A DNA stretch of 64,000 bases from an uncultured Chitinophagaceae bacterium (GTDB lineage: Bacteria > Bacteroidota > Bacteroidia > Chitinophagales > Chitinophagaceae). The notes under the pieces are model-generated. The model worked only from the letters and a program-made list of their open reading frames with translations. It did no database searches and had not been told where the DNA came from. Below, piece after piece: positions 3,475 through 64,000 of the stretch; the first letter of the stretch is position 1, and the number at the start of each line of letters is the position of its first letter. The stretch is from positions 130,558 to 194,557 of the forward strand of contig CAVTBI010000014.1 in NCBI GenBank assembly GCA_963732885.1, in the 5' to 3' direction. Both the position numbers and the translations under genes were made by a program.

Positions 3475-3510
3475 TAGTAAACCAACAAATAAGCCCAATT
3501 TTTGTTTTAC
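3475..3510 (+). repeat. Copy of dispersed 36-bp bipartite motif
   Basis: TAGTAAACCAACAAATAAGCCCAATTTTTGTTTTAC; right end overlaps the CHAD-like stop codon. Confidence 0.75.
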
Positions 3511-4505
3511 GAATTAGAACCAGATAGCACAATGTGCTCTAAAATATCTTCACTAAAAAAAGTATTGCTTATATTTTGCGCCTGGTCAAAATCTGTAAAA
3601 TTGTTGGCTGGGTTTCGTTACATAGCGAATAGGCTAAAGAAGCTACATTTTTTTGGGCTTTATAAACATCAGAAATGCTTTGCTCAAGAAGTTCAATTTT
3701 GAGGCCGCTGTCTTTTAATTTCCCCAATTCTGAAATCATCCAGCTCAATGCGAAATAATAATTTTGGTTGAGAAGAATATGATCCTGTAATCCGCTTCCA
3801 TCAGGCATTTTATTGTAAGGCGAATTGATAATTTCAGGTGTAAGGTATTTGTTCAAAAACTCAGGTGGTTCGCCATCGGCTTTTAGTTCCATCAATCCAC
3901 GTAACGCCTGCGGGTAAATACTAAGCCATCTCAATTCGCGTCGTAGTTCATGAACATCTTTTTCAATATCAGTAAATTCTTTTGTTCGGCTCTTGTATTT
4001 TTTAATAATTTTTTCAATTTCATTTTGATAAACTTCTAATACCGCTACCGTATCATTTTTTTCATCAAACCATTCAATGGAATCTAGTTTTTTATAGATC
4101 TTTTTCAAGCGCTTTTTATGTTTGCCAATCCATTTTTCTTTTTGAAGGTGCTTATTGAATTCTTTTATTTTTTTATCCGTCTTTTCTTTTGCATAAAGTG
4201 ATAATTAATTCAGGGATATTTTTATCGTCAGCAAATTCTTTATAAAAGCCATCGTAATAATCGATCTGCCCGAGAAAATCTTCAATGTCTTTAAAAACAT
4301 TATTTATTTTTTTTATTTTTTGATGGGCATGTATTTTTTTATAAATCCTGCTAAATGCTTCCAGCATAAAAAGCGGCGTGCGCATGTCCTTGGAATAAAT
4401 AAAGCTTGCCGGGTCTTCTGTTGATGCGGCTTCTGTTAAGATGTTTTCAACTTTTGCAAGAAAATAAAGGAAGCGGCTTTTGCCAACCGGTACAAACTGG
4501 TCCAT
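3507..4505 (-). CDS. CHAD-domain-like (polyphosphate-binding) protein, 2 frameshifts
   Basis: ORFs 4173-4505 and 3569-4108 plus a C-terminus ending TAA at 3507; motifs FKDIEDFLGQIDYYD, VHELRRELRWLSIY and ISELGKLKD match the CHAD LG..D and H..R..R pattern. Confidence 0.6.
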
Positions 4506-4572
4506 ATGTACAAAAATTTAAAAAATGAGACACTCAATATACACAATAATAAAAAGGAGTATACATTAAATT

Positions 4573-5489
4573 TTATTTTCCACACGCTTTGCAATTGTCT
4601 GTAGTAAATTCAGTTTCAACAGTAATATGCCGGATGTTCATATGCTCAAGCCGGTGCTTAAGCGTATCTTTTATTGAAGTGATTTGGTCACTGCTTTCAT
4701 TGCAATCAACCACCATATGGGCGGTCATCGCGTTTTCTGTGGTGCTCATCGCCCACACATGAATATGATGAAGGTCTATTAATCCCATCAATCTTTTCTG
4801 CGTTCGTTTTATATCGTTGATGTCAATATCTTTTGGAACCGCATCCAGTGTAAGGGCAAGGCTTTCTTTTAATAAAGCCCCATGTGCCGGCCAGAATCAC
4901 CATCACTATAATGATGCTTATCACCGGGTCAATCCAATACAAACCGGTGAAAGTAAATTAAGAGGCCTCCGGCCATAATGCCCACACTTACCAGTCCATC
5001 AGCCAGCATGTGAAGGTAAGCGCCTTTTACATTCAGGTCATGTTTTTGATTTTTCATGAAAAGATAAGCCGTAATGAAATTTACCACAATGCCAATACCG
5101 CCAACGATCGCAATTGTTTTTCCCGGTAAGGGTACAGGATTAGAAAATCGTTGCATCGCTGCATAAGCGATGGCGCCAATGGAAATCAACAGGATAACCC
5201 CGATTAAAAGGGCGGCAAGAATAGTCGTTTTTCGATATCCGTAAGTATATTTGTCATTGGGTTTAATTTTCAACAGACGAAAAGCCAATAATGATAATGC
5301 CAGGCTGCCCACATCTGCAAGGTTGTGGCCAGCGTCTGATAAAAGGGACAAAGAACGAATGGAAAAGCCGATTACAGCTTCAATTACCACAAACAAGCTA
5401 TTGAGAATAATCCCAATCACCAGAGCGGCATTGACATTGGTAAGCCTTTCAAAATGGCCATGGCTATGGTGTGAATGATCGTGCTCCAT
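4573..5489 (-). CDS. Cation diffusion facilitator (CzcD/ZitB-like Zn/Co/Cd exporter), frameshifted
   Basis: His-rich N-terminus MEHDHSHHSHGH; LLSDAGHNLADV, GAYLHMLAD and C-terminal LHHIHVWAMSTTENAMTAH motifs; frameshifts near 4800-4950. Confidence 0.9.
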
Positions 5490-5508
5490 TTTTAATATAA
5501 AGTTGAGG

Positions 5509-5516
5509 CAAAGATA
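5509..5516 (-). promoter_or_regulatory. Bacteroidota -7 promoter box for the CDF gene
   Basis: TATCTTTG on minus strand, 20 nt upstream of the ATG. Confidence 0.6.
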
Positions 5517-5660
5517 TTTAATTAGGTAATTAGCCAATGTGAAAATGAGAAAATTTGATAATAAATAAAAAGCAGGTATGATAGAAATTATTATTTGCCA
5601 AAAAAGGTTTAATTATAATATATTAACTTGCAACCAATTCCTTTATCCAAATCAATTTTT

Positions 5661-6269
5661 ATGAAAATGGCGATGAAATGGGATACACCTGACGGGCACT
5701 CACCCGTAGTTCCTTTTTTCAATTCTGTTTCCCCCATTTCCAAAGGGGCTATCGAAACATTTGACAAACACACGTTCCCGGTTTTCCTGGAAAAGAAAAA
5801 GTTACTTTTAAAACCTGGCGTTATTGCAGATCATTTTTATTTTATATTAAAAGGAGTCATTCATGGGTATATTAAAGAAGAAGGGAAACAAATAACAACA
5901 TGGATAGAGGAGGAAAATGAAATTGTGGGTTCTATACGCACATTAGGAACCACCAAACCATGCGAGGAATACTTACAAGCGTTGGAAGATTGCGAATTAA
6001 TAGCCATACCCATTATTGTCACGGAAGAAGTTTTTGATAAATACCCAGAAACAAATGTGGTTGCGCGCCGTTTATGGGAACACAACTACCGTAGCGCGGA
6101 AGCACGAGCGTACTTAGGCCGCATCCCATCCGCTGAAAAGAAATACAAACAACTCATGAATACTCATCCGAACCTTATTAACCGGGTTTCTTTAAAATAC
6201 CTGGCTTCCTACTTGGGAATGACGGTTGAAACTTTGTGCCGTATCAGGGCACGCCTAAATAAGGGATGA
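5661..6269 (+). CDS. Crp/Fnr-family transcriptional regulator
   Basis: cNMP-binding region (YFILKGVIHGY...LQALEDCEL) and C-terminal HTH LASYLGMTVETLCRIR. Confidence 0.9.
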   Translation: MKMAMKWDTPDGHSPVVPFFNSVSPISKGAIETFDKHTFPVFLEKKKLLLKPGVIADHFYFILKGVIHGYIKEEGKQITTWIEEENEIVGSIRTLGTTKPCEEYLQALEDCELIAIPIIVTEEVFDKYPETNVVARRLWEHNYRSAEARAYLGRIPSAEKKYKQLMNTHPNLINRVSLKYLASYLGMTVETLCRIRARLNKG

Positions 6270-6275
6270 ACTTCT

Positions 6276-6388
6276 TTGTATAAATGTTGATTGCATAGCA
6301 AGTTTGGAGTTTTCCCATAGCCTTGTTTCTATCCACTATTTTAGAAATACAGTGAACAAATAAATTCGGGCGATTTTTGTTTTGGTAA
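6276..6388 (+). repeat. 113-bp direct repeat, copy A (contains first 7 codons of a methyltransferase on the minus strand, its leader and the 36-bp motif at 6350-6385)
   Basis: Manual alignment to 8216-8329: 74/82 columns identical up to CAGTGAA, more divergent in the motif spacer. Confidence 0.9.
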
Positions 6389-6394
6389 AATTAT

Positions 6395-6835
6395 TTAAGC
6401 CTGGAAAGCACCACTTTGAGTAAAATGTTTTGTTGCCATTAAAGAATTTTCTCCAACCATATTTTTCACTTCATCAATATTGATTTGAGAAATGATTTCA
6501 TCAGGAATTAAAATCTCAAATTCAAATTCGGGAAGGTGCAGCCGCACTTTATGGATGCTTCGCAAAGAATCGAAGGCTTTTATAAAATCAAGGGCGATTT
6601 TAGGCATTGCAATTCGCAGGCCGCTGTATTCATTATTTTCATAAATCCCGAAAGGGTAAATATGATGCGCCGTTACAAAAACATCGGGAAAAAGATCTTT
6701 CAATGCAAGGGCTATCGCACAATTATTTCCGATTTTTTCAACGTCATTGTGTGCCCCGCATTCCTGGCTCCTTTCGAGAATTTCTTTTGTTACTTTTATT
6801 TTGAAGTTAAACGCCATGCCTGCATTTTTTTCCAT
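6395..6835 (-). CDS. Hypothetical protein with CG...NNCAIA motif
   Basis: 146-aa ORF with coding-like composition; no family recognised with certainty. Confidence 0.7.
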   Translation of the reverse strand: MEKNAGMAFNFKIKVTKEILERSQECGAHNDVEKIGNNCAIALALKDLFPDVFVTAHHIYPFGIYENNEYSGLRIAMPKIALDFIKAFDSLRSIHKVRLHLPEFEFEILIPDEIISQINIDEVKNMVGENSLMATKHFTQSGAFQA

Positions 6836-6999
6836 TTAAAGGTAAGCGTTTTTTCTAATCTTTCAATTCACAACTTCAGTTTTAAGCGAGGGAAATGTTA
6901 GGTTAATGGATAGTTATAAGTTGCGTTTTTCAATTATTTTGACATGCTATTTGTAGTTTATTTTTTAGATTTTTTTTTTAAATATTAAACACAAATATT

Positions 7000-7515: not shown

Positions 7516-7568
7516 ATGATTCATTATAATGAATGACTTAAAATAGAACCGTAAGAGAATTTCCAACG

Positions 7569-7602
7569 AAAAATAGCCGGACCAGAAGTGCGGCTATTTT
7601 TT
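7569..7602. terminator. Bidirectional intrinsic terminator between convergent genes
   Basis: AAAAATAGCCG-11 nt-CGGCTATTTTT. Confidence 0.8.
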
Positions 7603-7633
7603 ATAATTTAGTATCCGGTTTCAGAAAACGCCA

Positions 7634-8236
7634 TTAGTTTTTCATTAAAACCAACGTACTCATACAACGGATATTATTAACGTTTACTATTTTTAAAGGC
7701 TCTATAAAAGATAAATTATTCTCTTGCATGGCTTTGTCAAGAAGGGTAGGTGTTAAAAGGAACCTAACTGTTCCATCGGGAATATGATAAACGCCGTCTT
7801 CAATTAATTTCACCTTGTCTTCCATTCCTATAGTTGATGCCATTCTTATAAATAAAGAACCTTTTGGTTTTAAAACACGTACCAATTCTTTTACCATTTT
7901 ATAAAAATGTGGAGTAGATTCTGCAAAATGCAGAACAGCGCTGCTTATTACATGGCCGAAAAAATTATCTTCAAAAGGAAGCTGATCGGTTTCAGCTACC
8001 TGGAATCTTTCTGCCTTAAAATCCGGATGAACGGATTTTAAATAATTGACAGGAGTTTCATCTTTATCAATTCCATAAATATCAATTTCGTTTTTTAAAA
8101 ACCAAAATAGATTCTTTCCGCCACCACAACCGGCATCTAAGATTTTGTCAGTTGGTTTGTACCTGCCTTTCATGATTTGGTCAAGCAAATAAATGTCAGT
8201 GCTTCCAATTAGTTCTTGTATAGATGTTGATTGCAT
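7634..8236 (-). CDS. Class I SAM-dependent methyltransferase
   Basis: Motif I ILDAGCGGGKN; LPFEDNFF; RVLKPKG. Confidence 0.9.
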   Translation of the reverse strand: MQSTSIQELIGSTDIYLLDQIMKGRYKPTDKILDAGCGGGKNLFWFLKNEIDIYGIDKDETPVNYLKSVHPDFKAERFQVAETDQLPFEDNFFGHVISSAVLHFAESTPHFYKMVKELVRVLKPKGSLFIRMASTIGMEDKVKLIEDGVYHIPDGTVRFLLTPTLLDKAMQENNLSFIEPLKIVNVNNIRCMSTLVLMKN

Positions 8237-8329
8237 AGCAAGTTTTATATTTTCCCATTAGCCTTGTCTCTATCCACTATTTTAAAAATACAGTGAATAA
8301 AGGACTTCAGCAGATTTTTATTTCGGTAA
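8216..8329 (+). repeat. 113-bp direct repeat, copy B (36-bp motif at 8291-8326)
   Basis: See copy A; overlaps the start of the intact methyltransferase. Confidence 0.9.
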
Positions 8330-9905: not shown

Positions 9906-9967
9906 TATTCCCATTTCATTATTTTAAAAATACAGTAAACCAATAAATTTTGAAGATTTTATTTTAG
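9906..9967 (+). repeat. Third, internally deleted copy of the direct repeat, ending in the 36-bp motif (9933-9967)
   Basis: TTCCCAT..TATTTTAAAAATACAGTAAACCAATAAATTTTGAAGATTTTATTTTAG shares TTCCCAT and TATTTTAAAAATACAGT with copy B. Confidence 0.7.
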
Positions 9968-13299: not shown

Positions 13300-13355
13300 C
13301 AGAAACAAACCTGCCTACCGGCCAGGCAGGCTTTTAATAAGGATTTTTATTTTGA
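13300..13355 (+). repeat. 36-bp motif interrupted by palindromic REP-like unit CCTGCCTACCGGCCAGGCAGG (13310-13330)
   Basis: Removing 13310-13330 leaves CAGAAACAAACTTTTAATAAGGATTTTTATTTTGA. Confidence 0.8.
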
Positions 13356-14752: not shown

Positions 14753-15223
14753 ATGGACATTAAACAAATTCATGAATTGGTAAAGCTTGTTAATAAAAGC
14801 AATATTGGTGAATTGATGATCGAAAAAGAAGGGTTTAAAATTACCATTAAACAGAAAAAAGAACCTGCCCAGCTTTACAGCCAGCCAGTAATTCAGCAAG
14901 TGCCGCCAATACAGCAAGCTGTTGCTCCCGCTGTTGCAAAAGCCACCGAAAAAAAGGCGGAAGAGCCATCAAAACAAGAAAATCTTTTAACTATTAAAAG
15001 CCCTATGATAGGGACTTTTTATCGTCAGGCAGGGCCCGACAAACCGCTTTTTGTAAGTGTGGGTGATGAAGTGGAAGTAGGCCAGGTGGTTTGCATTATA
15101 GAAGCGATGAAACTTTTTAATGAAATTGAAAGTGAAGTTGCGGGTAAAATTGTAAAGGTGCTTGTTGAAGATGCTTCTCCTGTAGAATTTGACCAGCCGT
15201 TATTTTTGGTGGAACCGGTTTAA
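14753..15223 (+). CDS. accB: Acetyl-CoA carboxylase biotin carboxyl carrier protein
   Basis: KSPMIGTFYR and biotinylation motif EAMKLFNEI. Confidence 0.96.
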   Translation: MDIKQIHELVKLVNKSNIGELMIEKEGFKITIKQKKEPAQLYSQPVIQQVPPIQQAVAPAVAKATEKKAEEPSKQENLLTIKSPMIGTFYRQAGPDKPLFVSVGDEVEVGQVVCIIEAMKLFNEIESEVAGKIVKVLVEDASPVEFDQPLFLVEPV

Positions 15224-17110: not shown

Positions 17111-17146
17111 TCAAAACAGGAATGCAACTTATTTGTTTCTTTACTG
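17111..17146 (-). repeat. Copy of 36-bp motif
   Basis: CAGTAAAGAAACAAATAAGTTGCATTCCTGTTTTGA on minus strand. Confidence 0.7.
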
Positions 17147-17182
17147 GATTTGAACAACTGATTTTATCAAAAAAAAGAAGAA

Positions 17183-19036: not shown

Positions 19037-19499
19037 TTATCGGGAAGAAAGGTTTTAAAGGATGTGCAATAACTTATAAATCCAAAGCTCAAATATAATA
19101 ATTTAAGAAGTGGTTTGTAGCCGGAGTTACATCTATACGTTTCATTTGTCCCTCTTGTATTCTCACTTTCAGGGCACGGATGTTCGACAGAATACCAGCC
19201 ATGCCTCACGGTTTGCAAACCAAAAAGATGTTTGCCCGAATAGTAAAGTGTTAAAGCGTTTTTATAAAAGAGTAGAAAGAGATTGCGTGACTTTCTTATG
19301 AAACAAGAGAAGGAAAAACGAACTTAAAAGGAAATATGAAAGTGTCCGGAAAAAATAAAAGTGATTAAATAGCTGCATTGTTGGCAAAACAGTAAAGCAA
19401 GTGTCTGCAACAGTTCGTTTGCAATTGGCTTGATAGAAGCGGCTTGAACTTAGGGGAATTGAAGAAGCGATCTCCGTTTGATTTCCTTAATTTTGTTTT

Positions 19500-24687: not shown

Positions 24688-24719
24688 TGACAAATTTGAG
24701 ATTGCATTGTGGCGCAATA

Positions 24720-24755
24720 CAGTAAAGCAACTTTTATTGAAGATTTTTATTTTAA
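24720..24755 (+). repeat. Copy of 36-bp motif
   Basis: CAGTAAAGCAACTTTTATTGAAGATTTTTATTTTAA. Confidence 0.8.
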
Positions 24756-29710: not shown

Positions 29711-29718
29711 AAAGTAAC

Positions 29719-29754
29719 CAGTAAACAAACAAATAATGCCCATTTTTATTTTGC
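29719..29754 (+). repeat. Copy of 36-bp motif
   Basis: CAGTAAACAAACAAATAATGCCCATTTTTATTTTGC; right arm contains the stop codon of the convergent gene. Confidence 0.8.
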
Positions 29755-34542: not shown

Positions 34543-35382
34543 ATGAATGAGCATTTTTTTATTTACAATGATCATTTTTTTCGTGCAGGCACACCTGTTA
34601 TAATTTCTCAAAACCGTTCGTTCCGCTATGGAGACGGGCTGTTTGAAACAATGAGGATGTACAACGGCAAAATCCTTAATGCTGATTTTCATTTTGAAAG
34701 GTTATTTTCCGGATTGAAAATTTTACAGTTTGATATTCCTGCGTATTTTTCTTCAGAATATTTTACAAATACAGTAAACAAACTTTTATTAAAGAATTCC
34801 ATTTTAAAAAATGCAAGAATTCGGTTAATGGTTTTTCGTGGCGAAGAAGGAATTTTTGATATTGAAAATAATTCTACAAATTATATTATTGAAACTTTTC
34901 CTTTTTCTGAAAAAATTGAATTAAATGAAAAAGGGTTAGAATTAGATATTTTCCCCGATGCAAGAAAAAGTTGTGATTTATTTTCTAACTTAAAATCAAA
35001 TAATTATCTCCCTTCCGTAATGGCAGCCAGGTTTGCAAATAAAAATAATTGGGATGACGCCATTATTTTAAATGCTTTTGAAAGAATTTGTGAATCTGCA
35101 ATAGCCAATATTTTTATAATCCAAGGCGATGAAATTTGTACACCTCCTTTATCAGAAGGCTGTGTGGCTGGCACAATGCGGCGATGGATGCTGGAAAAAT
35201 TTGATTTGGAAAATTATGGCTTTGTTGAAAAACCACTAACAGTGACTGATCTTTTAAATGCAGATGAACTGTTTCTTACCAATTCAATTTATCAATTGAA
35301 ATGGGTGCAAAAGTTTAGAAAAAAATCCTATCAGAATCTAAAAATAAAGGAAATCTTTAAACAGGTTATTCAAAATATTTGA
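34543..35382 (+). CDS. Aminotransferase class IV (PabC/IlvE-like)
   Basis: YGDGLFETMR, HFERL, KSNNY, ESAIANIF, GCVAGTMR. Confidence 0.9.
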   Translation: MNEHFFIYNDHFFRAGTPVIISQNRSFRYGDGLFETMRMYNGKILNADFHFERLFSGLKILQFDIPAYFSSEYFTNTVNKLLLKNSILKNARIRLMVFRGEEGIFDIENNSTNYIIETFPFSEKIELNEKGLELDIFPDARKSCDLFSNLKSNNYLPSVMAARFANKNNWDDAIILNAFERICESAIANIFIIQGDEICTPPLSEGCVAGTMRRWMLEKFDLENYGFVEKPLTVTDLLNADELFLTNSIYQLKWVQKFRKKSYQNLKIKEIFKQVIQNI

Positions 35383-38875: not shown

Positions 38876-41875
38876 TTAAAATTTTCCGGGATACTTTTTA
38901 TTCAGGAGATCAATATAGCTCTGTAAATTTTTATTTTCTTTTAAAAGTTGAAGGTTACTGTCAGAAATAATATAAAAAGCGTACTTCTGAGCCGGTAGCC
39001 AGGAAATTTGAACCGGTGCTGCCTGCTTTAAATTATCACGGTACTTAATGGCTTCAGCCGCGTCAACAAAATTAGAAAACACCAATAAAGTCCGTGCACT
39101 GTCTAATGTGTCTTTTACAATCTCAATTTTATTGGTACTGTAACTCTGGCTGTTATACCTGTTGAAAGCATTTCTCGCCTCACTACTATAAACCGGGTCT
39201 ACTTTTGTAAGCACCATTAGTACATCCTGCGGCTCCAGCGGGTCAAATGTAAATTCGGCATTTTTTACCGGCGGCGCTAATTTTTTAGCAGGGTTAAGCT
39301 CTGCTGTTCCTGAAATTTCCTTTTGATTCTGTTTGGCCAGGTTTTCAATTTTATTCAAAGGAGCTGCCACATTATTCACCGGTTTTGAATTATCAAAAAC
39401 AACTATTTGCGAATCTTCTTTTGCACGTACTACATTAAGATTGGTAAGATAATGTTCAATGCTGTCCCTTCTTCCTAAAACATCAAGCATTGTTGCCGCT
39501 TTATCTTTCATTGGCGAAGTGGGGTATTCTTCAATTATTTGGTGCAAAACCTTCATTGCTGCGCTATCCTGGCGTTTTTGAATATAATAAACCGATTGAA
39601 TATAGAGCAATTGTGGATTCCAGTAACTTTTTCCATAAAGGCTGTCGGCGGCATTTTTTTCTTTAATGGCTTCATCGAAATTGCCTTCTATGAACAAATT
39701 ATAAATACCATCGTAACGTTTTTCAGCAACGGTATCTTTTTTAGAAGGATTAAAAGCCTCGGGATGCAAAACATATTGTGCATATTTGCTCTCATTGAAT
39801 TTTTTCAATAACAGGTTTTTATAATAATCCGCCAGTTGCTGATTTCCAATTTTTTTATAGCAATACGATAAATTCATGTACAGTTCGCCATCGTATAAAC
39901 TATCAGGAAAACGTTTTAAAGATTGCTGATAAGATCCGATGGCGGCATTATAATCTTCCAAAAGATCCTGGTAATCTTTGCCCACCTGGAATAAAGAACG
40001 CGCTATTTTTGAATTGCTTGTATCCAATTGGATTTTTGTAAGAGGAACATTGGCCAGTAACCCCTGTTCAGAAATATCCTGCTGAACCGGCCTGGCGATT
40101 GTTTCCGGAGTAGTGGATTGTGCCTGCGGAGCCAGCGGGTCACCATAAGCTGCGGCTTGCTCCGTATTATTGGCTACAGAAGAATTTTGGCTTCCGGAAA
40201 TGCGGCGCCAGTTGTCCACGTTTTGCCTTTTGCCCCAAATCCTTTTAAATTCATTATAGCCTTGCGCTTTTATCGAATTGTTATAAAAATACCAATCGCC
40301 TTTTTTAGAAGTGTTGTTTCCAAAAATATCCTGCGGTTGATTTTGTGAATTATAAAAAGGGGATGAGGAATTGTAATTATTTGCATTATCTTTTATACCA
40401 CGTTCCTTTTTTAATTTTTTTGATAATTTTTTTATGAAATTATCCCTGTCAGTTGCAGGCATTGCGGCAATAGCCTGGAGGCTGTCTTCCCGGTCAATAA
40501 TATCCAGGTTTCTCACAATTTTTGCCAGCGCGCTTTTCCTGATTTGGATGTCAGCAAAATTTTTTAAGCTGGTGTCGCCTGCCTGAAGGCTGTCGTAAAA
40601 ATTAAAAGATTGCCTGTAATTTTTTAGGCTGTAATTTATTTCTGCGAGATTCAGAAATGCTTTATTTTTTAAAGAGAGGTTCTCTGCATTATAAACCGTG
40701 CTGGCTTTATAAAATGAAAGCGCCGTTGTGGTGTCGGGTTTTTGCATTGCAATTTCGGCGGCGGAAAAATAAATGATATCGCGGTAAGGCTGAAATTTAT
40801 CTTTATGCGCCATGTGCAATAGCCGGGCAATACTTTTATCGATTTCAGCAGGATCGTTGCTTTTCAACATTTTTGCCTGGTTAAGATTGGCATAAATATC
40901 CATCAATGGATCCGTTGTATGCCTTATTGCTTTGTTATAATAATCAGATGCAGTGTCCTGGTTATGATTCATTTCATAAAGCTGGCCAAGTAAAAATTCC
41001 CGCCTCGCCTGGTCTTGTAAATCCAATGAATTGGGAAGCGCATTTTTTATATATACAATCGCGCTATCGTACATATTTTGTTTAAAAAACCAATAACCCT
41101 GGACTTCCTGGAAATAAGGTTCCAAACGTGTGGGAAATTGGGGGTCATTTTTTAAAGTATTAATTAATCCGGCAGCTTCTGCGTAATCGCCAAGATCGGT
41201 AAGTGCGCGGGCCTGCCAAACCAAAGCGTCGTTTCTGCTGGGAGGCCTGGAAAAAATTTTATCTATAATATTCCTGTTTTCCTTGCTTGAAACACTTAGT
41301 GCGCCGTTAACCCGGTCATCATTGGTGCCAACTATTAACTGATCATCTTCCCCTTTTCTTTTTCTTGGAAAAAGATTGTAATTAATAAATTGAAAAGTCA
41401 TTGAAGCAGAGTCAAAATCTTTTCTCAGGTAATACGCCTCACCCATTAATAAATAAAAATTATCAACCCAATTTGTTCGAAGGTCGTGGAGCAATATCCC
41501 TGCAGTTGCTTCATAAATAACTGAATCCAGTTGTGTTTTTTGGGCCGCGGTATTATCTAAGGAATAACTGTAATAAGGCAATAATTGCGTGTAATCATCT
41601 TTCGAAGCCATTCTTGCTGATTCAATAACATAATTTATTTTGTTATTGGCGTTAAAAAAATAATTATAATGGCTGGTTGTATTTTGAACAAACCTTCCGG
41701 GAAGCCTTAACTTTTTATCTTCCGGCTTTTCTGACCGAAGGGGAGTATCTTTAAATTTTTCCGGTTTGTCTTTTTGAAGGTCAAATGTAATTTTGCCCAA
41801 TTGAGCATTAGCATCCGGAAATAAGAAAAAGAAGAGCAATAAAAAAGATACCAACTTAATGATCCGGCTTTTCAT
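38876..41875 (-). CDS. Large TPR protein, SprE/PorW-like (T9SS/gliding)
   Basis: TTSHYNYFFNAN, WVDNFYLLMGEAYY, WYFYN..K..G..EF...WG.R.NVDNWRR motifs; adjacent to AtpZ/AtpI-like genes. Confidence 0.75.
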   Translation of the reverse strand: MKSRIIKLVSFLLLFFFLFPDANAQLGKITFDLQKDKPEKFKDTPLRSEKPEDKKLRLPGRFVQNTTSHYNYFFNANNKINYVIESARMASKDDYTQLLPYYSYSLDNTAAQKTQLDSVIYEATAGILLHDLRTNWVDNFYLLMGEAYYLRKDFDSASMTFQFINYNLFPRKRKGEDDQLIVGTNDDRVNGALSVSSKENRNIIDKIFSRPPSRNDALVWQARALTDLGDYAEAAGLINTLKNDPQFPTRLEPYFQEVQGYWFFKQNMYDSAIVYIKNALPNSLDLQDQARREFLLGQLYEMNHNQDTASDYYNKAIRHTTDPLMDIYANLNQAKMLKSNDPAEIDKSIARLLHMAHKDKFQPYRDIIYFSAAEIAMQKPDTTTALSFYKASTVYNAENLSLKNKAFLNLAEINYSLKNYRQSFNFYDSLQAGDTSLKNFADIQIRKSALAKIVRNLDIIDREDSLQAIAAMPATDRDNFIKKLSKKLKKERGIKDNANNYNSSSPFYNSQNQPQDIFGNNTSKKGDWYFYNNSIKAQGYNEFKRIWGKRQNVDNWRRISGSQNSSVANNTEQAAAYGDPLAPQAQSTTPETIARPVQQDISEQGLLANVPLTKIQLDTSNSKIARSLFQVGKDYQDLLEDYNAAIGSYQQSLKRFPDSLYDGELYMNLSYCYKKIGNQQLADYYKNLLLKKFNESKYAQYVLHPEAFNPSKKDTVAEKRYDGIYNLFIEGNFDEAIKEKNAADSLYGKSYWNPQLLYIQSVYYIQKRQDSAAMKVLHQIIEEYPTSPMKDKAATMLDVLGRRDSIEHYLTNLNVVRAKEDSQIVVFDNSKPVNNVAAPLNKIENLAKQNQKEISGTAELNPAKKLAPPVKNAEFTFDPLEPQDVLMVLTKVDPVYSSEARNAFNRYNSQSYSTNKIEIVKDTLDSARTLLVFSNFVDAAEAIKYRDNLKQAAPVQISWLPAQKYAFYIISDSNLQLLKENKNLQSYIDLLNKKYPGKF

Positions 41876-41892: not shown

Positions 41893-41928
41893 ATAGAATA
41901 AGAATCAACAAAAAAAGTTCATTTACTG
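41893..41928 (-). repeat. Copy of 36-bp motif
   Basis: CAGTAAATGAACTTTTTTTGTTGATTCTTATTCTAT on minus strand. Confidence 0.55.
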
Positions 41929-42080
41929 TAAGAACTCTTTTTCTGCAAAATTATTTTAAAAATACGGTTATTTTAAGCTAATATGCCAATATAAACTCTT
42001 GCTTATGTATTTTTAACAACATTGCTGATAAAGGCAATCAGATCAGAGATTGAAATTTTATAAAATGAAATAATAAAATT

Positions 42081-42688: not shown

Positions 42689-43316
42689 GCAAGAATCCCC
42701 TTTACACCAGCTCAGTATTTATTTGCCCGATGGCTCCTTTGAAGCGGTAGCATCCTATTTGGTGGAATATAAAGTGCACCTAACGGTAACGCGTGAACGC
42801 TTAACCAAACTCGGCGATTACCGCAATAAACATTTAAATAAAAATCACCGCATCAGTGTAAACGGCAACCTCAATAAATATTCTTTTCTCATTACCTTGT
42901 TGCATGAGTTGGGGCATTTGGTAGCTTATGAAAAATATGGAAATAAAATTCAGGCGCATGGCGTGCAATGGAAAAATGAATTTGGGAAAATACTCGCTGG
43001 TTTTATTTCAAGAAAAATCTTTCCGGCTGATATTGAAAAAGAATTATTAAAAACTTTAAAAAGCCCTGCGGCAAGTTCGTGTGCCGAAGCGCCGCTTACG
43101 AGGGTTTTAAAAAGGTATGATCCGCATAAACCCGGCGTTTTTTTATTAGAAGAATTGCCGGATGAAAGTTGGTTCAGGTTTAAAAACGGGCATATTTATA
43201 AGAAAGAAAAGAAGATAAGAACCCGTTTTTTATGCAAAGATATTGTTACGAAAAAACAGTTTCTATTCAGCCCTATCACAGAAGTAGAATTAGTGAAGAA
43301 AGAGTTAGGTTTATAG
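42681..43316 (+). CDS. SprT-like metalloprotease domain protein
   Basis: TLLHELGH (HExxH), HGVQWK. Confidence 0.88.
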   Translation: MPKQESPLHQLSIYLPDGSFEAVASYLVEYKVHLTVTRERLTKLGDYRNKHLNKNHRISVNGNLNKYSFLITLLHELGHLVAYEKYGNKIQAHGVQWKNEFGKILAGFISRKIFPADIEKELLKTLKSPAASSCAEAPLTRVLKRYDPHKPGVFLLEELPDESWFRFKNGHIYKKEKKIRTRFLCKDIVTKKQFLFSPITEVELVKKELGL

Positions 43317-43349
43317 TAAACCAATAAATTACACCGATTCTTATTTTTG
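43314..43349 (+). repeat. Copy of 36-bp motif starting at the SprT stop codon
   Basis: TAGTAAACCAATAAATTACACCGATTCTTATTTTTG. Confidence 0.75.
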
Positions 43350-46218: not shown

Positions 46219-46693
46219 AATTGAATGCTAACAGTAAAGCAACAAATTTTGAATATTTTGTTGCGGCTTTTAGATTCCTAATTCTCAATTCTTTTACTCA
46301 ATAAAATTGCACCATTTCTCAATTTTTCAGAGTTGTTCGATTTAATTTTTTTAAAGAGAAATAAGTTTGCTCTTTGAAGAGGAATCTTTTCAAAAAATGT
46401 ATTGCTTATAAATCTTTAAAAGGGTTTGATTTGATAATTGGCAGTGAGGATATGTAAACGATTGATATTAAATTATTAAAAACTTTGTTGTTCAAGAGAC
46501 AGGAAATAAATGCGGTATGTTTGCGGTTCTGATTTAGCTACTTTGGAATAGAATAATTTCGCATTCAAATGGGTAATGAAAAACTTTGGTTGTAAAATTT
46601 TTGGCAGAGATAGGGTACTATCAATGATGTATTAAAATTTGTAAATTAATTCTTTCAGATAGTGTATTTTTTCTAACGCGTAAACCTTTTTCA

Positions 46694-49117
46694 ATGAAAC
46701 GGTTTTTCTTTGTAATTACACTCACAGTTATTTGTTTGTTTTCTGCTAATGCTCAACAAAACCTCAGGTTGTGGTACAATCATCCTGCTATAACATGGGA
46801 AGAGTGCACACCCTTAGGAAATGGCCGCCTGGGTGCAATGCCTGATGGTGGCGTGTTAAAAGAAAATATCGTATTAAATGATATTACCCTTTGGTCGGGA
46901 GGGCCACAGGATGCTGATAAAGAAGGAGCAGTAAAATATTTACCAGAAATTAGAAAATTATTGTTTGAAGGGAAAAATGCCGGAGCAGAGGCATTGGTCA
47001 ACAAGGTATTTATCTGTAAAGGAGCCGGCTCTGGCTCTGGCAACGGCGCCAATGTACCGTACGGAAGCTACGAGATGCTGGGAAACCTTCATATTAATTA
47101 TGACTATGGCGCAGATAGCGCGTTGGTAAATCCTCAAAATTATGTCAGGGAATTATCGTTAGGCTCTGCTGTGGCAAAATGTAGTTATCGTCTCAATGGT
47201 ATAACTTATAGCCGCGAATATTTTACCAGCTTTTCGGATGATGTAATTATCGTTCGCCTTATGGCAAACCAACCGGGGAAAATCAGTTTTGCATTATCTC
47301 TTGACCGGCCCGAAAAATATCAAACTACGGTGCATAATAATGAACTGCAGATGGAAGGCCAGTTAAATAATGGAACTGACGGGAAAGGCATGCAGTATCT
47401 GACCAGGGTGAAAATAAAAAATAATGGTGGAAAATTAATTACCGGTGACAGTACCTTGAGGGTTCAGGGTGCCAATTCAGTTATTATTTATATTTCCTCT
47501 TCTACTGATTTTCGCCAGGTATCCCTCGAACAAAAATCGTTGGCTTTACTCAATGCCGCTTTCAACAAAAAATATCAAACTGAAAAGGCGGAACACATAA
47601 AATCCTATCAAAAGCTTTTTCTTCGTGCTTCGCTTTCCCTGGATAATAAAAACCTGGAACAGGCATCATTGCCTACAGATGAAAGGTTGGTAGCATTTAC
47701 AAAAGATCCTACGGATAATGGCTTGCCGGTATTGTATTTTCAATACGGACGTTACTTGTTGATTAGTAGTACACGGCCCGGATTACTTCCGCCCAACTTG
47801 CAGGGGCTTTGGGCTAATACAATACAGACGCCCTGGAATGGAGATTATCATCTTGATATAAATATTCAGATGAATCACTGGCCGCTGGATGTAACCAATC
47901 TGCCGATGCTGAATGAGCCTTTTTATTCTTTGGTAAAAGGAATGGTGAAACCGGGGGAGAAAACAGCTAAGTTATATTATGGTGGGAAAGGATGGGTAGC
48001 GCATGTAATCACTAATGTATGGGGCTACACTTCTCCGGGAGAGAGCGCTTCATGGGGTGCTACCAATTCCGGCTCCGGGTGGCTGTGTGAGTTGCTTTGG
48101 CAGCATTATTTATTTACACTTGATCAGGATTATCTCAAAAAAATATATCCCATTATTAAAGGCTCTGCTGCATTCTATTTGAGTACGCTGGTAAAGGGCC
48201 CTAACAATGGATGGCTTGTAACCGCGCCGTCCAATTCACCTGAAAATGCTTTTCGCCTGCCTGATGGAAAAGTGGTGCATGTGTGTGCTGGGCCTACAAT
48301 AGATAATCAAATCGTCAGGGAATTATTTTCACACGTTATTGAAGCTTCAAAAATTTTGAAGAAAGATGCTCCATTTATTCAACAACTAACGCAGGCAGGA
48401 AAACAATTGCCTCCAAACCAAATTGACAAAAATGGCAGGCTGATGGAATGGTTGCAACCTTATGAGGAAGTTGAGCCGCAACATCGCCATCTATCGCCGC
48501 TTTGGGGGATGTATCCCGGCAACGAAATTACTATGCAGAGTACTCCTCAATTAGCCGAAGCCGCCAAAGCTTTGTTGATCAGAAGAGGGGATATCAGCAC
48601 TGGCTGGTCATTAGCCTGGAAGATTAATTTATGGGCGAGGTTAAAGGACGGGAATCATGCTTTTAGTTTATTAAAAGATCTTTTAAAACCTACCGCCCAA
48701 AAAGGATTTAATATGGTTAATGGCGGCGGCACATATCCTAATTTATTTGATGCGCACCCACCATTCCAGATTGACGGTAATTTCGGAGGGACTGCGGGGA
48801 TTGCTGAGATGCTTTTACAAAGTGAGGAAGGATATATTGATTTGTTGCCGGCGCTTCCTGATCAATGGCCTAACGGTAGATTCACAGGTTTAGTTGCAAG
48901 AGGGGGAGGTGTGCTAAATCTGAAATGGGCAAATCATCAAATTATATCTTTAGAAATAACACCAACAGTAACGAACCATTTCAAAATAAAAGTTCCCGAT
49001 TATGTGGGACAGGTGAAGCTGAAATACAAAAATAAAACTACGATTTTGAATACATCGAATGGGTTTATTAATATTTCTTTGAACAAAGGGTACCGGGCTA
49101 AATTTTTATTCTTATAG
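46694..49117 (+). CDS. GH95 family alpha-L-fucosidase-like glycoside hydrolase (secreted)
   Basis: PLGNGRLGAM, FQYGRYLLISS, NLQGLW, YHLDINIQMNHW, HRHLSPL, HPPFQIDGNFG. Confidence 0.93.
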   Translation: MKRFFFVITLTVICLFSANAQQNLRLWYNHPAITWEECTPLGNGRLGAMPDGGVLKENIVLNDITLWSGGPQDADKEGAVKYLPEIRKLLFEGKNAGAEALVNKVFICKGAGSGSGNGANVPYGSYEMLGNLHINYDYGADSALVNPQNYVRELSLGSAVAKCSYRLNGITYSREYFTSFSDDVIIVRLMANQPGKISFALSLDRPEKYQTTVHNNELQMEGQLNNGTDGKGMQYLTRVKIKNNGGKLITGDSTLRVQGANSVIIYISSSTDFRQVSLEQKSLALLNAAFNKKYQTEKAEHIKSYQKLFLRASLSLDNKNLEQASLPTDERLVAFTKDPTDNGLPVLYFQYGRYLLISSTRPGLLPPNLQGLWANTIQTPWNGDYHLDINIQMNHWPLDVTNLPMLNEPFYSLVKGMVKPGEKTAKLYYGGKGWVAHVITNVWGYTSPGESASWGATNSGSGWLCELLWQHYLFTLDQDYLKKIYPIIKGSAAFYLSTLVKGPNNGWLVTAPSNSPENAFRLPDGKVVHVCAGPTIDNQIVRELFSHVIEASKILKKDAPFIQQLTQAGKQLPPNQIDKNGRLMEWLQPYEEVEPQHRHLSPLWGMYPGNEITMQSTPQLAEAAKALLIRRGDISTGWSLAWKINLWARLKDGNHAFSLLKDLLKPTAQKGFNMVNGGGTYPNLFDAHPPFQIDGNFGGTAGIAEMLLQSEEGYIDLLPALPDQWPNGRFTGLVARGGGVLNLKWANHQIISLEITPTVTNHFKIKVPDYVGQVKLKYKNKTTILNTSNGFINISLNKGYRAKFLFL

Positions 49118-50560: not shown

Positions 50561-50681
50561 AAAGAAATTTTAGGGACAGTAAACCAACAAATAATATAAA
50601 ATTCCTTTTTTTTATTTAGCAATAAAATAATTATTACTCTTTTCTCTTAAAATATTTTTTTATTATTGAATAAAGGGTTCG

Positions 50682-53263: not shown

Positions 53264-54256
53264 ATGTCTAAATGGTTAATGCTTGTATTTTTTTCATTCG
53301 CCACAAGCAATCTTTTATTAGCGCAGCAAAATAACTTTGAAGTAAAAGGTTCAGGTTCCGGAATGTATATAGAACACATCGTTACGCCCAAAGAGAATTT
53401 TTACAGTGTGGGAAGAATGTATAATGTAAATCCCAGGGAATTGGGTGTTTTCAATCATCTGCACTTTGCAAGCGGTTTAAATATTGGGCAGGTTTTAAAA
53501 ATCCCCCTTGATAAAAATAATTTTACACAAGAAGAAAGTGCTGCGGTAAATGAAGCGCTTATACCTCTTTATCATACGGTTGCTGCCGGCGAAACCCTTT
53601 ACAGGCTTGGGGTTAATTATAATAAAGTATCTTTAGCTTCATTAAAAAAATGGAACCACCTTTCATCAGATGAACTGAGTGTGGGGCACCCCATGATAAT
53701 CGGATTTTTAAAAGTTGATAAAACACAATCATCATTAGCCAAAGAAAACCCAATGGTTAATGTGCAAAATAACACGGAACCCCCAACAGAAAAAACCCCT
53801 GAAACCCAAACCGAAAAACCTGCAGAAACCGCAATTTCTTCACCTGCAAAAACAGAACCCACAGAAACAAAACCTGTGGTTTCGGCAATCCAAACTTCCA
53901 ATTCAGTTGCAATAAATAGCAGTGCTAATTTCTCGGGAGGTTATTTTAAAAATTTATATGAACAGCAAACTGCCAATAAAGTACCAATTGATAAAAGTGG
54001 GAGTGGCTCGGTTTTCAAATCAACAAGTGGATGGCAGGATAAAAAATATTATTGTTTCAGCAATGACGCATCTGCCGGAACCGTTTTGAAAATAACGGAT
54101 AATTCAACCGGGAAAAGCGTATATGCAAAGGTGTTAGATGCCATTCCTGATATCAGCCAGAATGATGGATTAATCACCGTTGTCAGTAATGCGGCAGCAG
54201 ATGCATTGGGTGCCGGAGATGATAAATTTGATTGTGTAGTAAGTTTTGCAAAGTAG
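53264..54256 (+). CDS. Secreted LysM-domain protein (2 LysM, linker, RlpA/DPBB-like C-terminus)
   Basis: HIVTPKENFYSVGRMY, HTVAAGETLYRL; GTVLKITDNSTGKSVYAKV. Confidence 0.85.
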   Translation: MSKWLMLVFFSFATSNLLLAQQNNFEVKGSGSGMYIEHIVTPKENFYSVGRMYNVNPRELGVFNHLHFASGLNIGQVLKIPLDKNNFTQEESAAVNEALIPLYHTVAAGETLYRLGVNYNKVSLASLKKWNHLSSDELSVGHPMIIGFLKVDKTQSSLAKENPMVNVQNNTEPPTEKTPETQTEKPAETAISSPAKTEPTETKPVVSAIQTSNSVAINSSANFSGGYFKNLYEQQTANKVPIDKSGSGSVFKSTSGWQDKKYYCFSNDASAGTVLKITDNSTGKSVYAKVLDAIPDISQNDGLITVVSNAAADALGAGDDKFDCVVSFAK

Positions 54257-54267
54257 TAAACGAACCA

Positions 54268-54285
54268 TCCCGATAGCTATCGGGA
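54268..54285. repeat. Perfect 18-bp palindromic REP-like unit inside a degenerate 36-bp motif (54254-54308)
   Basis: TCCCGATAGCTATCGGGA preceded by TAGTAAACGAACCA. Confidence 0.75.
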
Positions 54286-54415
54286 GAAGAAAATCATTTC
54301 CTCCCTTTTTAAAGGGTAAACCTTTCAAAACCTATTCTTAATTATTTCTTATTTCTCATGGAATTATTTCCCTTTTAACTAAAAGATTTATAATTTTACT
54401 TAAAAAATTTATACG

Positions 54416-58043: not shown

Positions 58044-58078
58044 ATGGAATGCATTTTCGCTTTATAATATCGGGGCAA

Positions 58079-58113
58079 CAGTAAACAAACTTTTAATTAA
58101 ATTTTTATTTTAT
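58079..58113 (+). repeat. Copy of 36-bp motif abutting the next start codon
   Basis: CAGTAAACAAACTTTTAATTAAATTTTTATTTTAT(G). Confidence 0.75.
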
Positions 58114-59508: not shown

Positions 59509-59522
59509 AAAATAAAAAATTT

Positions 59523-59927: not shown

Positions 59928-60120
59928 AACAAATGTTTATGAAGCAGAGAAATCTAAAATTATAATCCAAAAACTTCATGAATATTTTCCGGAAAATGAA
60001 ACAAACTTCGACCTCGACGATTGTGATAAAATTTTAAGAGTGGAGGGAGCATATATTTTATCTGAAAAGATTATGGCCGTATTAAATGATGAAGGCCATT
60101 TTTGTGAAATTTTGGATTGA
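59911..60120 (+). CDS. Small hypothetical protein (HMA-like fold)
   Basis: MIEVFKTNV...NFDLDDCDKILRVE. Confidence 0.75.
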   Translation: MIEVFKTNVYEAEKSKIIIQKLHEYFPENETNFDLDDCDKILRVEGAYILSEKIMAVLNDEGHFCEILD

Positions 60121-60136
60121 AAATTAAGAAGCCTTT

Positions 60137-60928: not shown

Positions 60929-60969
60929 TACTTACGAAAGTATTCTTCTTTCAGATTAAGGAGCTATAC

Positions 60970-62622: not shown

Positions 62623-62649
62623 ATTGATCGTTAATATTTACTGAGGGCG

Positions 62650-62657
62650 CAAATATA
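62650..62657 (-). promoter_or_regulatory. -7 promoter box for glgP
   Basis: TATATTTG on minus strand. Confidence 0.6.
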
Positions 62658-62798
62658 AACGTAAAATGTAAGAAAATAATTGTATTCCGAAAATCAATGT
62701 GTAAAATTTACACGCATTTGATTTTATAAATAATTTATAAAAAGTTTTGTATCAATAAAAGTGGAGAAAAGAGATTGCAAAAGCCAGGTATATGAAAT

Positions 62799-63188
62799 TT
62801 AAGAAGGAATCACCGCACTCACCTCAATCTCAATAAGCAATTCTTCATCTATTAACCGGTTTACTTCAACCATTGAAGTGGCAGGTTTTATCTCTTTAAA
62901 AAAAAGCGCGTGTGCTTTTCCTATTTCTTTCCATTTAGAAATATCAGTTACATACATCCTTGTTCTTACCACATCTTTAAGGCTGCTTCCGGCTTCAATT
63001 AAAACCTTTTCAATTTTTTGAAAAATAAAAACCGCCTGCGCATACACATCTCCTTTTCCAATAATCATTTCGCCTTCAATAGCGGTGGTGCCTGAAACCT
63101 CAATCACATTTCCAACTTTAACGGCACGCGAATACCCAACTACATTTTCCCATTGCGCGCCTGAATTAAAAAGTTTTTTTTGTTGCAT
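62799..63188 (-). CDS. RidA (YjgF/YER057c) family protein
   Basis: WENVVGYSRAV, VSGTTA, VVRTRMYV, LIEIEV. Confidence 0.9.
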   Translation of the reverse strand: MQQKKLFNSGAQWENVVGYSRAVKVGNVIEVSGTTAIEGEMIIGKGDVYAQAVFIFQKIEKVLIEAGSSLKDVVRTRMYVTDISKWKEIGKAHALFFKEIKPATSMVEVNRLIDEELLIEIEVSAVIPS

Positions 63189-63235
63189 AATTGTTGGTTG
63201 AAAAAATGAACGTTGTATAGAAGATTATACTTTTC

Positions 63236-63838
63236 TTATTGAGGGTTTGCTGATTTTAATTTTTCAATTTGTTCAGAAATCTTCTTATTCCACGCCAATT
63301 GTTTTTCGGTATCTGTACTGTTTTTGGTTTCCCGGTCATATTCTTTTTGCCAATCATTTTCTTCATTATAAACCCGGTTAAAAATGGAATTTAATAAACT
63401 TTTATAATTGGTATAGGTAAAATGTGCCTTTCTTATTTCGGCTTCTAATTTCGCTGCGCCTAATCTTGTAATGTCAAAATGATGTTGCTCGTGTTCCAGT
63501 TGATAAGCAGAATTTACATTTGGTTTTTTCCACGAATCATGTTTGGTAAAAAAAGTAAATACCCCTACCGAAATATCAATATTATTTTCATCTGAGTGCA
63601 TAGATGAATTGAAAGAAAACCCGGAAGCCGTCTCTGCTCCCCAAGGGACAGAAGGAGGCACTTTTCCCTGGAAATCTTTCCAGGTAAGCTTTCCGTCAAA
63701 ATTATAATAAATGGTATCGCTTTCCGGATGGTTCTTATAATTTTCCATAAAAACACGCACCGTTACTTTTTGAGCAAATGTTTGAAGAGAAAAAAGGAAA
63801 GAGAAAAGGGTTAGAAATAAAATTTTTTGTAGAATCAT
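63236..63838 (-). CDS. Secreted DUF922-like putative Zn-dependent protease
   Basis: LTWKDFQG, LEHEQHHFDI, YDRET. Confidence 0.75.
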   Translation of the reverse strand: MILQKILFLTLFSFLFSLQTFAQKVTVRVFMENYKNHPESDTIYYNFDGKLTWKDFQGKVPPSVPWGAETASGFSFNSSMHSDENNIDISVGVFTFFTKHDSWKKPNVNSAYQLEHEQHHFDITRLGAAKLEAEIRKAHFTYTNYKSLLNSIFNRVYNEENDWQKEYDRETKNSTDTEKQLAWNKKISEQIEKLKSANPQ

Positions 63839-63977
63839 TTTTTAAAGACCGCACGGATGTTATGCAATCGCGAATTTCATTTTTTATATTTTAATTATTG
63901 GTTAAAGCCAGATTTTTAACAGGAATTACACGAATGATTTTGACAAGGGCAAAATCAAATTTCTATCATAAGAGAAA

Positions 63978-64000
63978 TGAAAATAAAAATTCTGGTTATT
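63978..64000 (-). repeat. Right half of a 36-bp motif copy, cut by the window edge
   Basis: AATAACCAGAATTTTTATTTTCA on minus strand aligns to motif positions 14-36. Confidence 0.5.

Follow-up and report, generated by a model that had tools for sequence, protein, structure and literature searches.

A two-part 35-bp word at some 1,400 sites in a Ginsengibacter-like Chitinophagaceae genome: a possible DNA uptake or self-recognition signal

Why would a bacterial genome carry the same asymmetric, two-part 35-bp word every few kilobases, mostly between genes, on both strands and in a single clade? The question arises from a stretch of 64,000 nucleotides from an uncultured soil Chitinophagaceae bacterium, which we refer to in full as the window (C14:130558-194557 of a 5.25 Mb assembly with 16 contigs and 37% G+C; this home genome is labelled G000). 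The GroEL encoded in the window shares 93% identity with the GroEL of a Ginsengibacter metagenome-assembled genome (MAG), and the next matches are from other Chitinophagaceae. A first-pass annotation of the window had described a dispersed, bipartite motif of near-constant spacing at gene junctions and had offered three models for it: a recombination site, solo end scars of an insertion sequence (IS), or a site for an alternative sigma factor or a nucleoid protein, with the first two preferred. Its general idea of a protein-recognition site has held, and its two preferred models have not. The motif is very probably a recognition site maintained by selection or drive. We tentatively propose, at somewhat less than even odds, that the recogniser is DNA-uptake or self-recognition machinery. 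The motif appears to be undescribed, as we found no match in the literature searched or in Rfam, and we know of nothing similar in Bacteroidota.

The motif has the consensus aCAGTAAACMAAC-AAATA-N5-GATTTTTATTTT, with sharp borders and a spacer of fixed length. It comprises a 17 bp left arm, five free base pairs and a 12 bp right arm, and the centres of the two arms lie ∼20 bp apart, or about two helical turns. With at most one mismatch, the left arm YAGTAAACMAAY matches 17 times in the window compared with 4.2 ± 2.2 times in shuffled sequence, and none of 100 shuffles reached 17. We then aligned the 553 exact left arms found genome-wide (280 forward, 273 reverse). Downstream of these, in bases that were not used for selection, the alignment recovers AAATA, five free bases and then GATTTTTATTTT, and information drops to zero outside positions −1 to 33. 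The central block is AAATA in ∼78% of these sequences and a TTTTA-like variant in ∼20%. An iterated 36-nt position weight matrix (PWM) scan of the genome, with the reversed sequence as a control, returned 1,433 copies at PWM scores ≥14 (19 in the control) and 1,315 copies at scores ≥20 (none in the reversed genome). This density corresponds to about one copy per 3.7 kb and ∼17 copies in the window. The arm-to-arm distance is modal in 873 copies, one base less in 32 and one base more in 13. At 32.2 bits, the motif far exceeds the 12.8 bits that would suffice to specify 1,433 sites. Among the 1,433 copies there are 500 different spacer 5-mers, and this diversity indicates that each copy arose independently and not by recent duplication. 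The first-pass annotation was also right that the motif is not a hairpin; folding gives a mean minimum free energy of −1.0 kcal/mol, and 0% of copies reach −8 kcal/mol or lower. Variation in the right arm is correlated genome-wide: G at position 29 co-occurs with C at positions 26–27 (ATTCCTGTTTT, ATTTCTGTTTT) far more often than with TTTTT.

Orthologous copies hold their place between species, in a comparison in which the relatives are mostly MAGs. Among 193 orthologous gaps between G000 and its relative G015 (median protein identity 84%), 27 share the motif, in the same orientation in all 27. Seven gaps at first appeared discordant: three or four of these represent a shared copy with a ∼20-nt palindrome in one species, one copy has decayed, and two fall in larger indels. 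Within the aligned pairs the arms are kept while the spacer and flanks are randomised, and in 2 of the 27 pairs the central block has changed from AAATA to TTTTA. Eighty motif-holding metagenome contigs with 79–89% DNA identity to G000 give a similar picture. Here, 44 of 52 and 41 of 44 copies (85–93%) are shared, and the unshared ones reflect small deletions, substitutions, gain or loss of a palindrome, and one 38-nt indel; losses of the motif proceed by decay. Over 13 gap-free pairs, the left arm is 96.6% identical and the right arm 91%, but the spacer is 71% and the flanks 83–84% identical (arms versus flanks, p = 2e-7), a pattern that points to purifying selection on the arms. Turnover is greater between G000 and G023 (78% amino-acid identity), with five shared copies, ten found only in G000 and two found only in G023.

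Copies that lie inside genes indicate how the motif arose. Genes were called with a simple, home-made codon-usage picker of open reading frames (ORFs), which gave 5,220 genes and 82% coding sequence; stop codons in these calls are exact and start codons approximate. Forty-one strong copies (PWM ≥28) lie deep in ORFs with normal coding scores, where deep means that >240 nt of the ORF precede the copy and >180 nt follow it, and they fall in three of the six frame classes (24, 10 and 7 copies). Their host genes, judged by sequence, include alaS (alanyl-tRNA synthetase), hisS (histidyl-tRNA synthetase), guaA (GMP synthase) and KdsB. We aligned guaA from seven motif-bearing genomes (G000, G015, G009, G005, G122, G338 and G023) with six motif-free sequences (G002, G014, G010, G004, G017 and G011), and alaS from six motif-bearing species (G009 gave no match) with five motif-free ones (G002, G017, G011, G247 and G012). 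The protein segments are of essentially equal length in both groups, and the DNA alignments are gap-free except for one palindrome insertion in G015. The motif is present in the motif-bearing group only (e.g. ACAGTAAACAAACAAATAACCCGATTTTTGG in guaA), and the corresponding columns of the motif-free species hold AT-rich codons unrelated to it. The gap-free alignments show that substitutions, some of them nonsynonymous, built the motif in sequence that was already there, on the branch from which this clade descends, and it has persisted ever since. Such an origin argues against insertion-type elements, including miniature inverted-repeat transposable elements (MITEs) and IS ends. Likewise, the location of these copies within essential genes makes promoter, terminator or roadblock functions very unlikely for them.

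The motif is confined to one clade of one Ginsengibacter-like genus of the Chitinophagaceae. Searched with a strict pattern, G000, G015 and G009 contain many copies and G005, G023 and G014, also of the home genus, a few, whereas no copy was found in other members of the genus or in 16 other families of the order. Across 300 Chitinophagaceae genomes (∼150 genera), the motif occurs in numbers in the home genus alone, with G122 and G338 added to the list; the sole match outside the genus is one two-mismatch hit in G160. Species within the clade have their own dialects. For example, G023 contains 160 copies per Mb by PWM, compared with 273 per Mb in G000, often has AAG in place of AAC, and shows a looser right arm. 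In the motif-free relative G010, k-mer enrichment over 400 kb revealed no over-represented word of this kind; at 59% amino-acid identity, G010 is too distant for its gap lengths to be compared. Viral contigs in IMG/VR contain no exact match to the motif, and an exact protein look-up for a strain-level comparison returned no match.

Most copies are intergenic (1,163 of 1,428 classifiable copies, or 81%), in keeping with the earlier remark that nearly all lie between genes and several touch stop codons. Copies typically fall 0–100 nt past a stop codon, whichever their orientation, and ∼100 genes take their own stop from a TAA or TAG inside the motif. Considering gaps of ≥40 nt, which usually hold one copy each, 55% of convergent gaps are occupied, compared with 24% of tandem and 26% of divergent gaps. 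Between tandem genes, 295 copies point the same way as the genes and 360 the opposite way; convergent gaps hold 320 copies and divergent gaps 188. After ∼90 nt per promoter is removed, the density in free intergenic DNA is 2.2 copies per kb in convergent, 1.65 in tandem and 1.38 in divergent gaps. As these values differ less than two-fold, much of the apparent preference for gene 3′ ends may be promoter avoidance. There is no peak in the distance between motif copies and downstream start codons. The strand of the motif is related neither to gene strand (rho −0.03) nor, in a check for strand bias against the replichores, to gene-corrected GC skew (rho −0.05). The copies are also spaced more evenly than chance. 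Relative to 1,000 permutations that preserve contig, gap class and gap length, the coefficient of variation is 0.826 versus 0.918 ± 0.028, and none of the permutations was as low. Only 210 neighbour distances are <2 kb (296 ± 12 permuted), and 23 inter-copy gaps exceed 15 kb (41 permuted).

High information content, both orientations, even spacing, clade restriction with dialects, positional conservation and in-place substitution together lead us to conclude that a directional force on the DNA sequence, and not on gene expression, made the motif genome-wide in the ancestor of the clade and has kept it there. By analogy with the uptake signal sequences (USS) of Pasteurellaceae and the DNA uptake sequences (DUS) of Neisseriaceae, biased uptake followed by recombination is the one well-understood process that yields this combination of features, and we take it to be the likeliest mechanism. 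We conjecture that a surface or periplasmic component of transformation would bind the motif preferentially, and that fragments of self DNA with the motif would be taken up and recombined more often. Mutations towards the consensus would then be over-transmitted, a form of molecular drive, and the motif would build up at tolerant sites, both in intergenic DNA outside promoters and in coding stretches under loose constraint where the reading frame stays open. It would have ended up at about one copy per 3.7 kb, in both orientations and in species dialects. Such machinery would be pilus-independent, since to our knowledge Bacteroidota have no type IV pilus. There is a precedent in Riemerella, a member of the Bacteroidota that is naturally competent without a pilus homologue, by an undescribed outer-membrane route with uncharacterised envelope proteins (PMC8459023). 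In Haemophilus influenzae, the uptake motif consists of a core with AT-rich flanks (PMC3458573), and USS in coding regions evolve together with the proteome (PMC2817400). In its full form, the proposal is that the motif is the first DNA uptake or self-recognition sequence in Bacteroidota, that pilus-independent machinery reads it, and that it has reshaped ∼1,400 sites, including some in essential genes. We assign this reading a probability of roughly 0.35.

Several observations weigh against an uptake signal. G000 does encode ComEC, DprA and a triple helix-hairpin-helix (HhH) ComEA-like protein, a competence background that speaks for uptake, but ComEC, DprA and the HhH protein are equally present in motif-free relatives, so no gene co-varies with the motif. 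PilB/PilT-type ATPases of a type IV pilus were not found in the genus, although this is not decisive given that Riemerella is competent without pilus genes. Moreover, we know of no report of competence in any Chitinophagaceae. The motif spans 35 bp, with specificity in both arms and a free spacer fixed at 5 bp, and is about three times longer than the 9–12 bp cores of USS and DUS; known uptake sequences are largely inside genes whereas the motif is 81% intergenic. Neighbouring copies share the same orientation in 58.6% of cases (runs z = −5.5), which uptake does not predict. Finally, strong hairpins are rarer in convergent gaps that hold a motif than in motif-free ones (43% versus 60%, p = 0.001), and a similar deficit is seen in tandem gaps (34% with the motif versus 44% without, p = 0.0003). 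This shortage of hairpins hints at some role at gene ends.

The same observations can be read differently if the motif is an architectural or topological chromosome site comparable to repetitive extragenic palindromes and bacterial interspersed mosaic elements (REP/BIME). Here, a clade-specific nucleoid-associated protein, possibly with gyrase or with factors like integration host factor (IHF) or HU, would bind both arms on one helix face, and the host would select one site per few kb, mostly behind genes, for chromosome organisation or supercoil relief. We regard this as the main rival, somewhat less probable than uptake, and it is the part of the third first-pass model that is still alive. 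Purifying selection on arms whose centres are held ∼20 bp apart would be expected of such a site, as would the even spacing, the preference for gene 3′ ends and convergent gaps, and the negative association with hairpins. An IS110-family element also targets the motif, just as REPs are targeted in E. coli and Pseudomonas (PMC11208160; bioRxiv 10.64898/2026.03.19.712850). However, any one of 1,400 sites should have a tiny effect on fitness, yet at least a dozen substitutions, some nonsynonymous, have been fixed in alaS and guaA. The 32 bits of the motif are far beyond what a nucleoid protein needs, no candidate protein has emerged so far, and the 3′-end preference may be mostly promoter avoidance, as the corrected densities indicate. 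A selfish repeat homogenised by copy-to-copy conversion, through ectopic gene conversion or a templated rewriting enzyme that turns motif-like sequences into the consensus with no gain to the host, is improbable. It would account for the excess information and the species-specific dialects, for identical 20-nt palindromes that one orthologous copy has and another lacks, as though handed on from copy to copy, and for the AAATA to TTTTA block change in 2 of 27 orthologous pairs. But spacers and flanks are locus-specific, so each short arm would need a separate conversion, and arms of 17 and 12 bp offer recombination very little length to act on. Nor would conversion be expected to space the copies evenly, and Y1 transposases are unlinked to the motif.

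The remaining explanations fare worse. A hairpin-free, two-way boundary of transcription units, at which a DNA-bound roadblock protein comparable to mitochondrial mTERF halts RNA polymerase from either side, would suit copies that lie just past stop codons in either orientation, usually one per gap, in 55% of convergent gaps and where strong hairpins are fewer. We nonetheless hold it to be highly doubtful: the 41 strong copies deep in alaS, hisS, guaA and other ORFs are conserved there across species, 26% of divergent gaps are occupied, there is no RNA structure, and close relatives of the same genus do without the motif. An intrinsic (Rho-independent) terminator was rejected, since the motif forms no hairpin, stable hairpins are not enriched beside its copies, and copies lie within essential genes. 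Taken together, the Xer/dif-like recombination site, the solo IS or MITE ends and the promoter of an alternative, extracytoplasmic function (ECF) sigma factor are largely refuted and retain very little probability. In their favour are the two-part layout with fixed spacing and the fact that some copies adjoin start codons (those at 43313 and 58078). A sigma-factor promoter, whether of −35/−10, ECF or Bacteroidota −33/−7 type, is at odds with the near-random orientation of the motif relative to genes (295 versus 360), the 320 copies in convergent gaps, the lack of a distance peak to start codons and the copies within essential genes. For a recombination site, the arms would be expected to be inverted repeats, which they are not, and all 27 of the shared orthologous copies have stayed in place and in the same orientation. 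Neighbouring genes have lost their adjacency at 13 of 39 motif gaps compared with 25 of 108 motif-free gaps, a weak association (p = 0.29), although a looser measure, breaks within three genes, shows mild enrichment of the motif (p = 0.023). Solo IS or MITE ends would call for a terminal inverted repeat, a target-site duplication or a parent element, none of which was found; the two arms are unrelated to each other, and no multicopy gene family ends in the motif. In addition, ∼96 comparisons gave one candidate indel of a whole motif, 85–93% of copies are shared, and coding copies were made in situ by substitution without a change in length. Another candidate, targets of RNA-guided dCas12f-sigma (PMC13472631), was set aside because the part of that report available to us has no sign of a genome-wide repeat and a free 5-bp spacer would misfit a single contiguous guide.

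Mobile DNA exploits the motif rather than ending in it. Outside the window, G000 has an IS110-family element (Pfam DEDD_Tnp_IS110 and Transposase_20) in four identical copies (C10:272595-273708, C12:34928-36041, C12:78800-79913 and C15:41157-42270), and each splits a motif exactly between CAGTAAAC and MAACAAATA...GATTTTTATTTT. A second IS110-family element (C12:347475, C3:10862 and C3:106640) lies next to complete motif copies, a few bases beyond their right-hand end. IS110 elements choose their targets by means of a bridge RNA, and these targets are often REPs (PMC11208160; bioRxiv 10.64898/2026.03.19.712850); the bridge RNA of the four-copy element presumably targets the motif. Approximately 35–50 motif copies also hold a GC-rich palindrome of ∼20 nt, placed at the AAC|AAATA junction or a few bases away from it. 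These palindromes belong to three families (CCTGCCTACCGGCAGGCAGG; TCCCGATAGCTATCGGGA; CCCGCCTG..CGGGCAGG) that occur almost only inside motif copies, and in at least five cases orthologous copies differ in the presence of a palindrome. In guaA of G015 (contig C103), a 21-nt palindrome, CCGCGCCGGAGGACGGGCAGG, lies in frame within the coding motif copy, at this junction, and adds seven codons (alignment A3, columns 58-78). As an abundant and harmless word, the motif would become a safe-harbour target for the IS110-family element and for small palindromic repeats. A link to REP-associated tyrosine transposases (RAYTs) was rejected: PF01797 (Y1_Tnp) is found in 41 of 46 genus members, motif-bearing or not, so Y1 (IS200/RAYT) genes are not co-distributed with the motif, and the Y1 copies in G000 are flanked neither by the motif nor by an arrangement of these repeats. 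Separately, what by sequence is an IS91-like (zinc-finger/Y2) transposase occurs at contig ends (C1:218-1325, C7:76-1045 and C7:216158-217250), and all its copies include one identical motif-like sequence (PWM 31), which is internal and antisense.

Within the window, listed at a PWM threshold of ≥10, three copies lie on the plus strand between convergent genes: 3474..3509 (PWM 40.7; ATAGTAAACCAACAAATAAGCCCAATTTTTGTTTTA), 24719..24754 (PWM 35.6; TTTTA central variant) and 29718..29753 (PWM 41.8). The last overlaps the stop codon of the minus-strand gene, and its G015 ortholog is the same copy with an 18-nt palindrome inserted. The copy at 43313..43348 (+, PWM 37.5) is conserved base for base in G015; the TAG of the motif is the stop codon of a SprT-like gene, and the ATG of a SpoU methylase gene follows 17 nt downstream. 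Further plus-strand copies are found at 9932..9967 (PWM 32.1; flanked by two minus-strand genes), 34771..34806 (PWM 29.5; TTTTA variant, within the 5′ portion of ORF 34543-35382, which was called mechanically), 46231..46266 (weaker, PWM 21.4; downstream of groEL), 50576..50611 (PWM 31.6) and 58078..58113 (PWM 22.1; TTTTA variant abutting an ATG at 58112). On the minus strand are 17112..17147 (PWM 32.5) and 41894..41929 (PWM 26.0), the latter just upstream of a long minus-strand gene that ends at 38876. The plus-strand copies at 6349..6384 (PWM 35.5) and 8290..8325 (PWM 21.3; 55 nt upstream of a minus-strand methyltransferase gene, 7634-8236) each end one unit of a ∼110 bp direct repeat (6276-6388 and 8216-8329). 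This repeat includes the upstream region of the methyltransferase gene and its first 24 nt (MQSTSIQE); because it spans the start of that gene, the segment at 6276-6388 is a duplicated, truncated 5′ end behind a Crp-like gene and not a cassette boundary.

Two sites first described as a REP-interrupted and a weaker copy are both genuine copies split by a GC-rich palindrome. At 13300..13353 (+), the left arm (13300-13310, with one base deleted) is followed by the 20-nt palindrome CTGCCTACCGGCCAGGCAGG at 13311-13330 and by CTTTTAATAAGGATTTTTATTTT at 13331-13353. At 54254..54301 (+), the left arm (54254-54265) precedes a palindrome of the second type, TCCCGATAGCTATCGGGA (54268-54285), and a degenerate right arm. 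The partial minus-strand copy at 63978..64000 (CAGTAAACTAATAAATAACCAGAATTTTTATTTT) consists of the right arm and spacer; its left arm lies just past the end of the window, and the copy is complete in the contig. The site proposed at 19390, by contrast with these, is a left arm alone rather than a full copy. Weak copies lie at 46711-46746 (−) and 54563 (+), and look-alikes of the left arm at 14758, 21545, 23326 and 54564. The window encodes no cognate enzyme, as had been stated, and contains no tRNA that we could find. An RNA element was likewise rejected: Rfam gave nothing for the window at the gathering threshold, and two motif-rich loci had no Rfam match at E ≤ 0.01.

Across the genome, orientation is locally clumped, with 15 plus and 2 minus copies on C1, 1 plus and 15 minus on C13, and 3 plus and 23 minus at 200–300 kb of C4, and these clumps are unrelated to GC skew or gene strand. 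A gene-poor region at C5:7700-19100 contains 14 motif copies, all on the minus strand, together with a 261-bp repeat of 2.4 units; it explains some of this local clumping. A further repeat, ending in CTGCCTTTGCCGGCAGGCAGG, occurs at C5:9755, 13956, 18597, 24905 and 30247. Upstream of pth, a gene-free tandem array (C4:716354-717967) consists of 3.4 units of 462 bp that are 90% alike, each with one motif copy in the same orientation; the array has no Rfam match and no ORF >60 aa.

Genome-wide signature words with more than 1,000 copies are known in very few bacterial groups (USS, DUS, REP and the highly iterated palindrome HIP1), and those known have informed on DNA uptake, mobile DNA and chromosome structure. 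If the motif is an uptake signal, sequence-specific transformation exists in Bacteroidota, and affinity for the motif offers a bait for isolating their pilus-free outer-membrane DNA receptor. If it is an architectural site, it represents a REP-like system without hairpins or RAYTs. Species just inside and just outside its range are available, which makes it possible to place its origin on one branch. An IS110 bridge-RNA element already exploits the motif as a natural safe-harbour target, and in metagenomes the motif marks the clade.

How does the motif compare with known systems? Unlike Xer/dif sites or integron attC, its arms are not inverted repeats around a crossover spacer, adjacency of genes is not significantly disturbed at its copies (p = 0.29), and place and orientation are kept in 27 of 27 pairs. 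Unlike MITEs and solo IS ends, it lacks terminal inverted repeats and target-site duplications, and presence/absence polymorphism of insertions is almost absent at 79–89% DNA identity. IHF-type sites, such as those in BIME-1 (also termed RIP), are also ∼35 bp long and asymmetric, and reading the motif in reverse complement brings out an A/T tract and ATC...TTG-like elements as in those sites. Their information content is far lower, and, by inspection, the spacing of the motif misfits what we take to be the IHF consensus, WATCAANNNNTTR. HIP1 (GCGATCGC) of cyanobacteria is likewise a very over-represented word in genes and spacers that is kept by selection or drive, but it is an 8-bp palindrome common inside genes, whereas the motif is long, asymmetric and mostly intergenic. 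REP/BIME of Enterobacteria and Pseudomonas resemble the motif in numbering hundreds to thousands of extragenic copies, located behind genes and in convergent gaps, in keeping their positions and in being preferred targets of IS110-family (bridge-RNA) insertion sequences. They differ in that the motif is not palindromic, has no hairpin, GTAG/CGTC tag or link to a RAYT/Y1 transposase, and includes in-frame copies inside genes that arose by substitution. USS of Pasteurellaceae and DUS of Neisseriaceae, like the motif, are asymmetric, non-palindromic words with a strong core followed by AT-rich blocks, present in more than 1,000 copies, one per few kb, in both orientations and more evenly spaced than chance. 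They too are restricted to lineages, form dialects, are kept at orthologous sites, and arise by point substitution, also inside genes in a few permitted frames.

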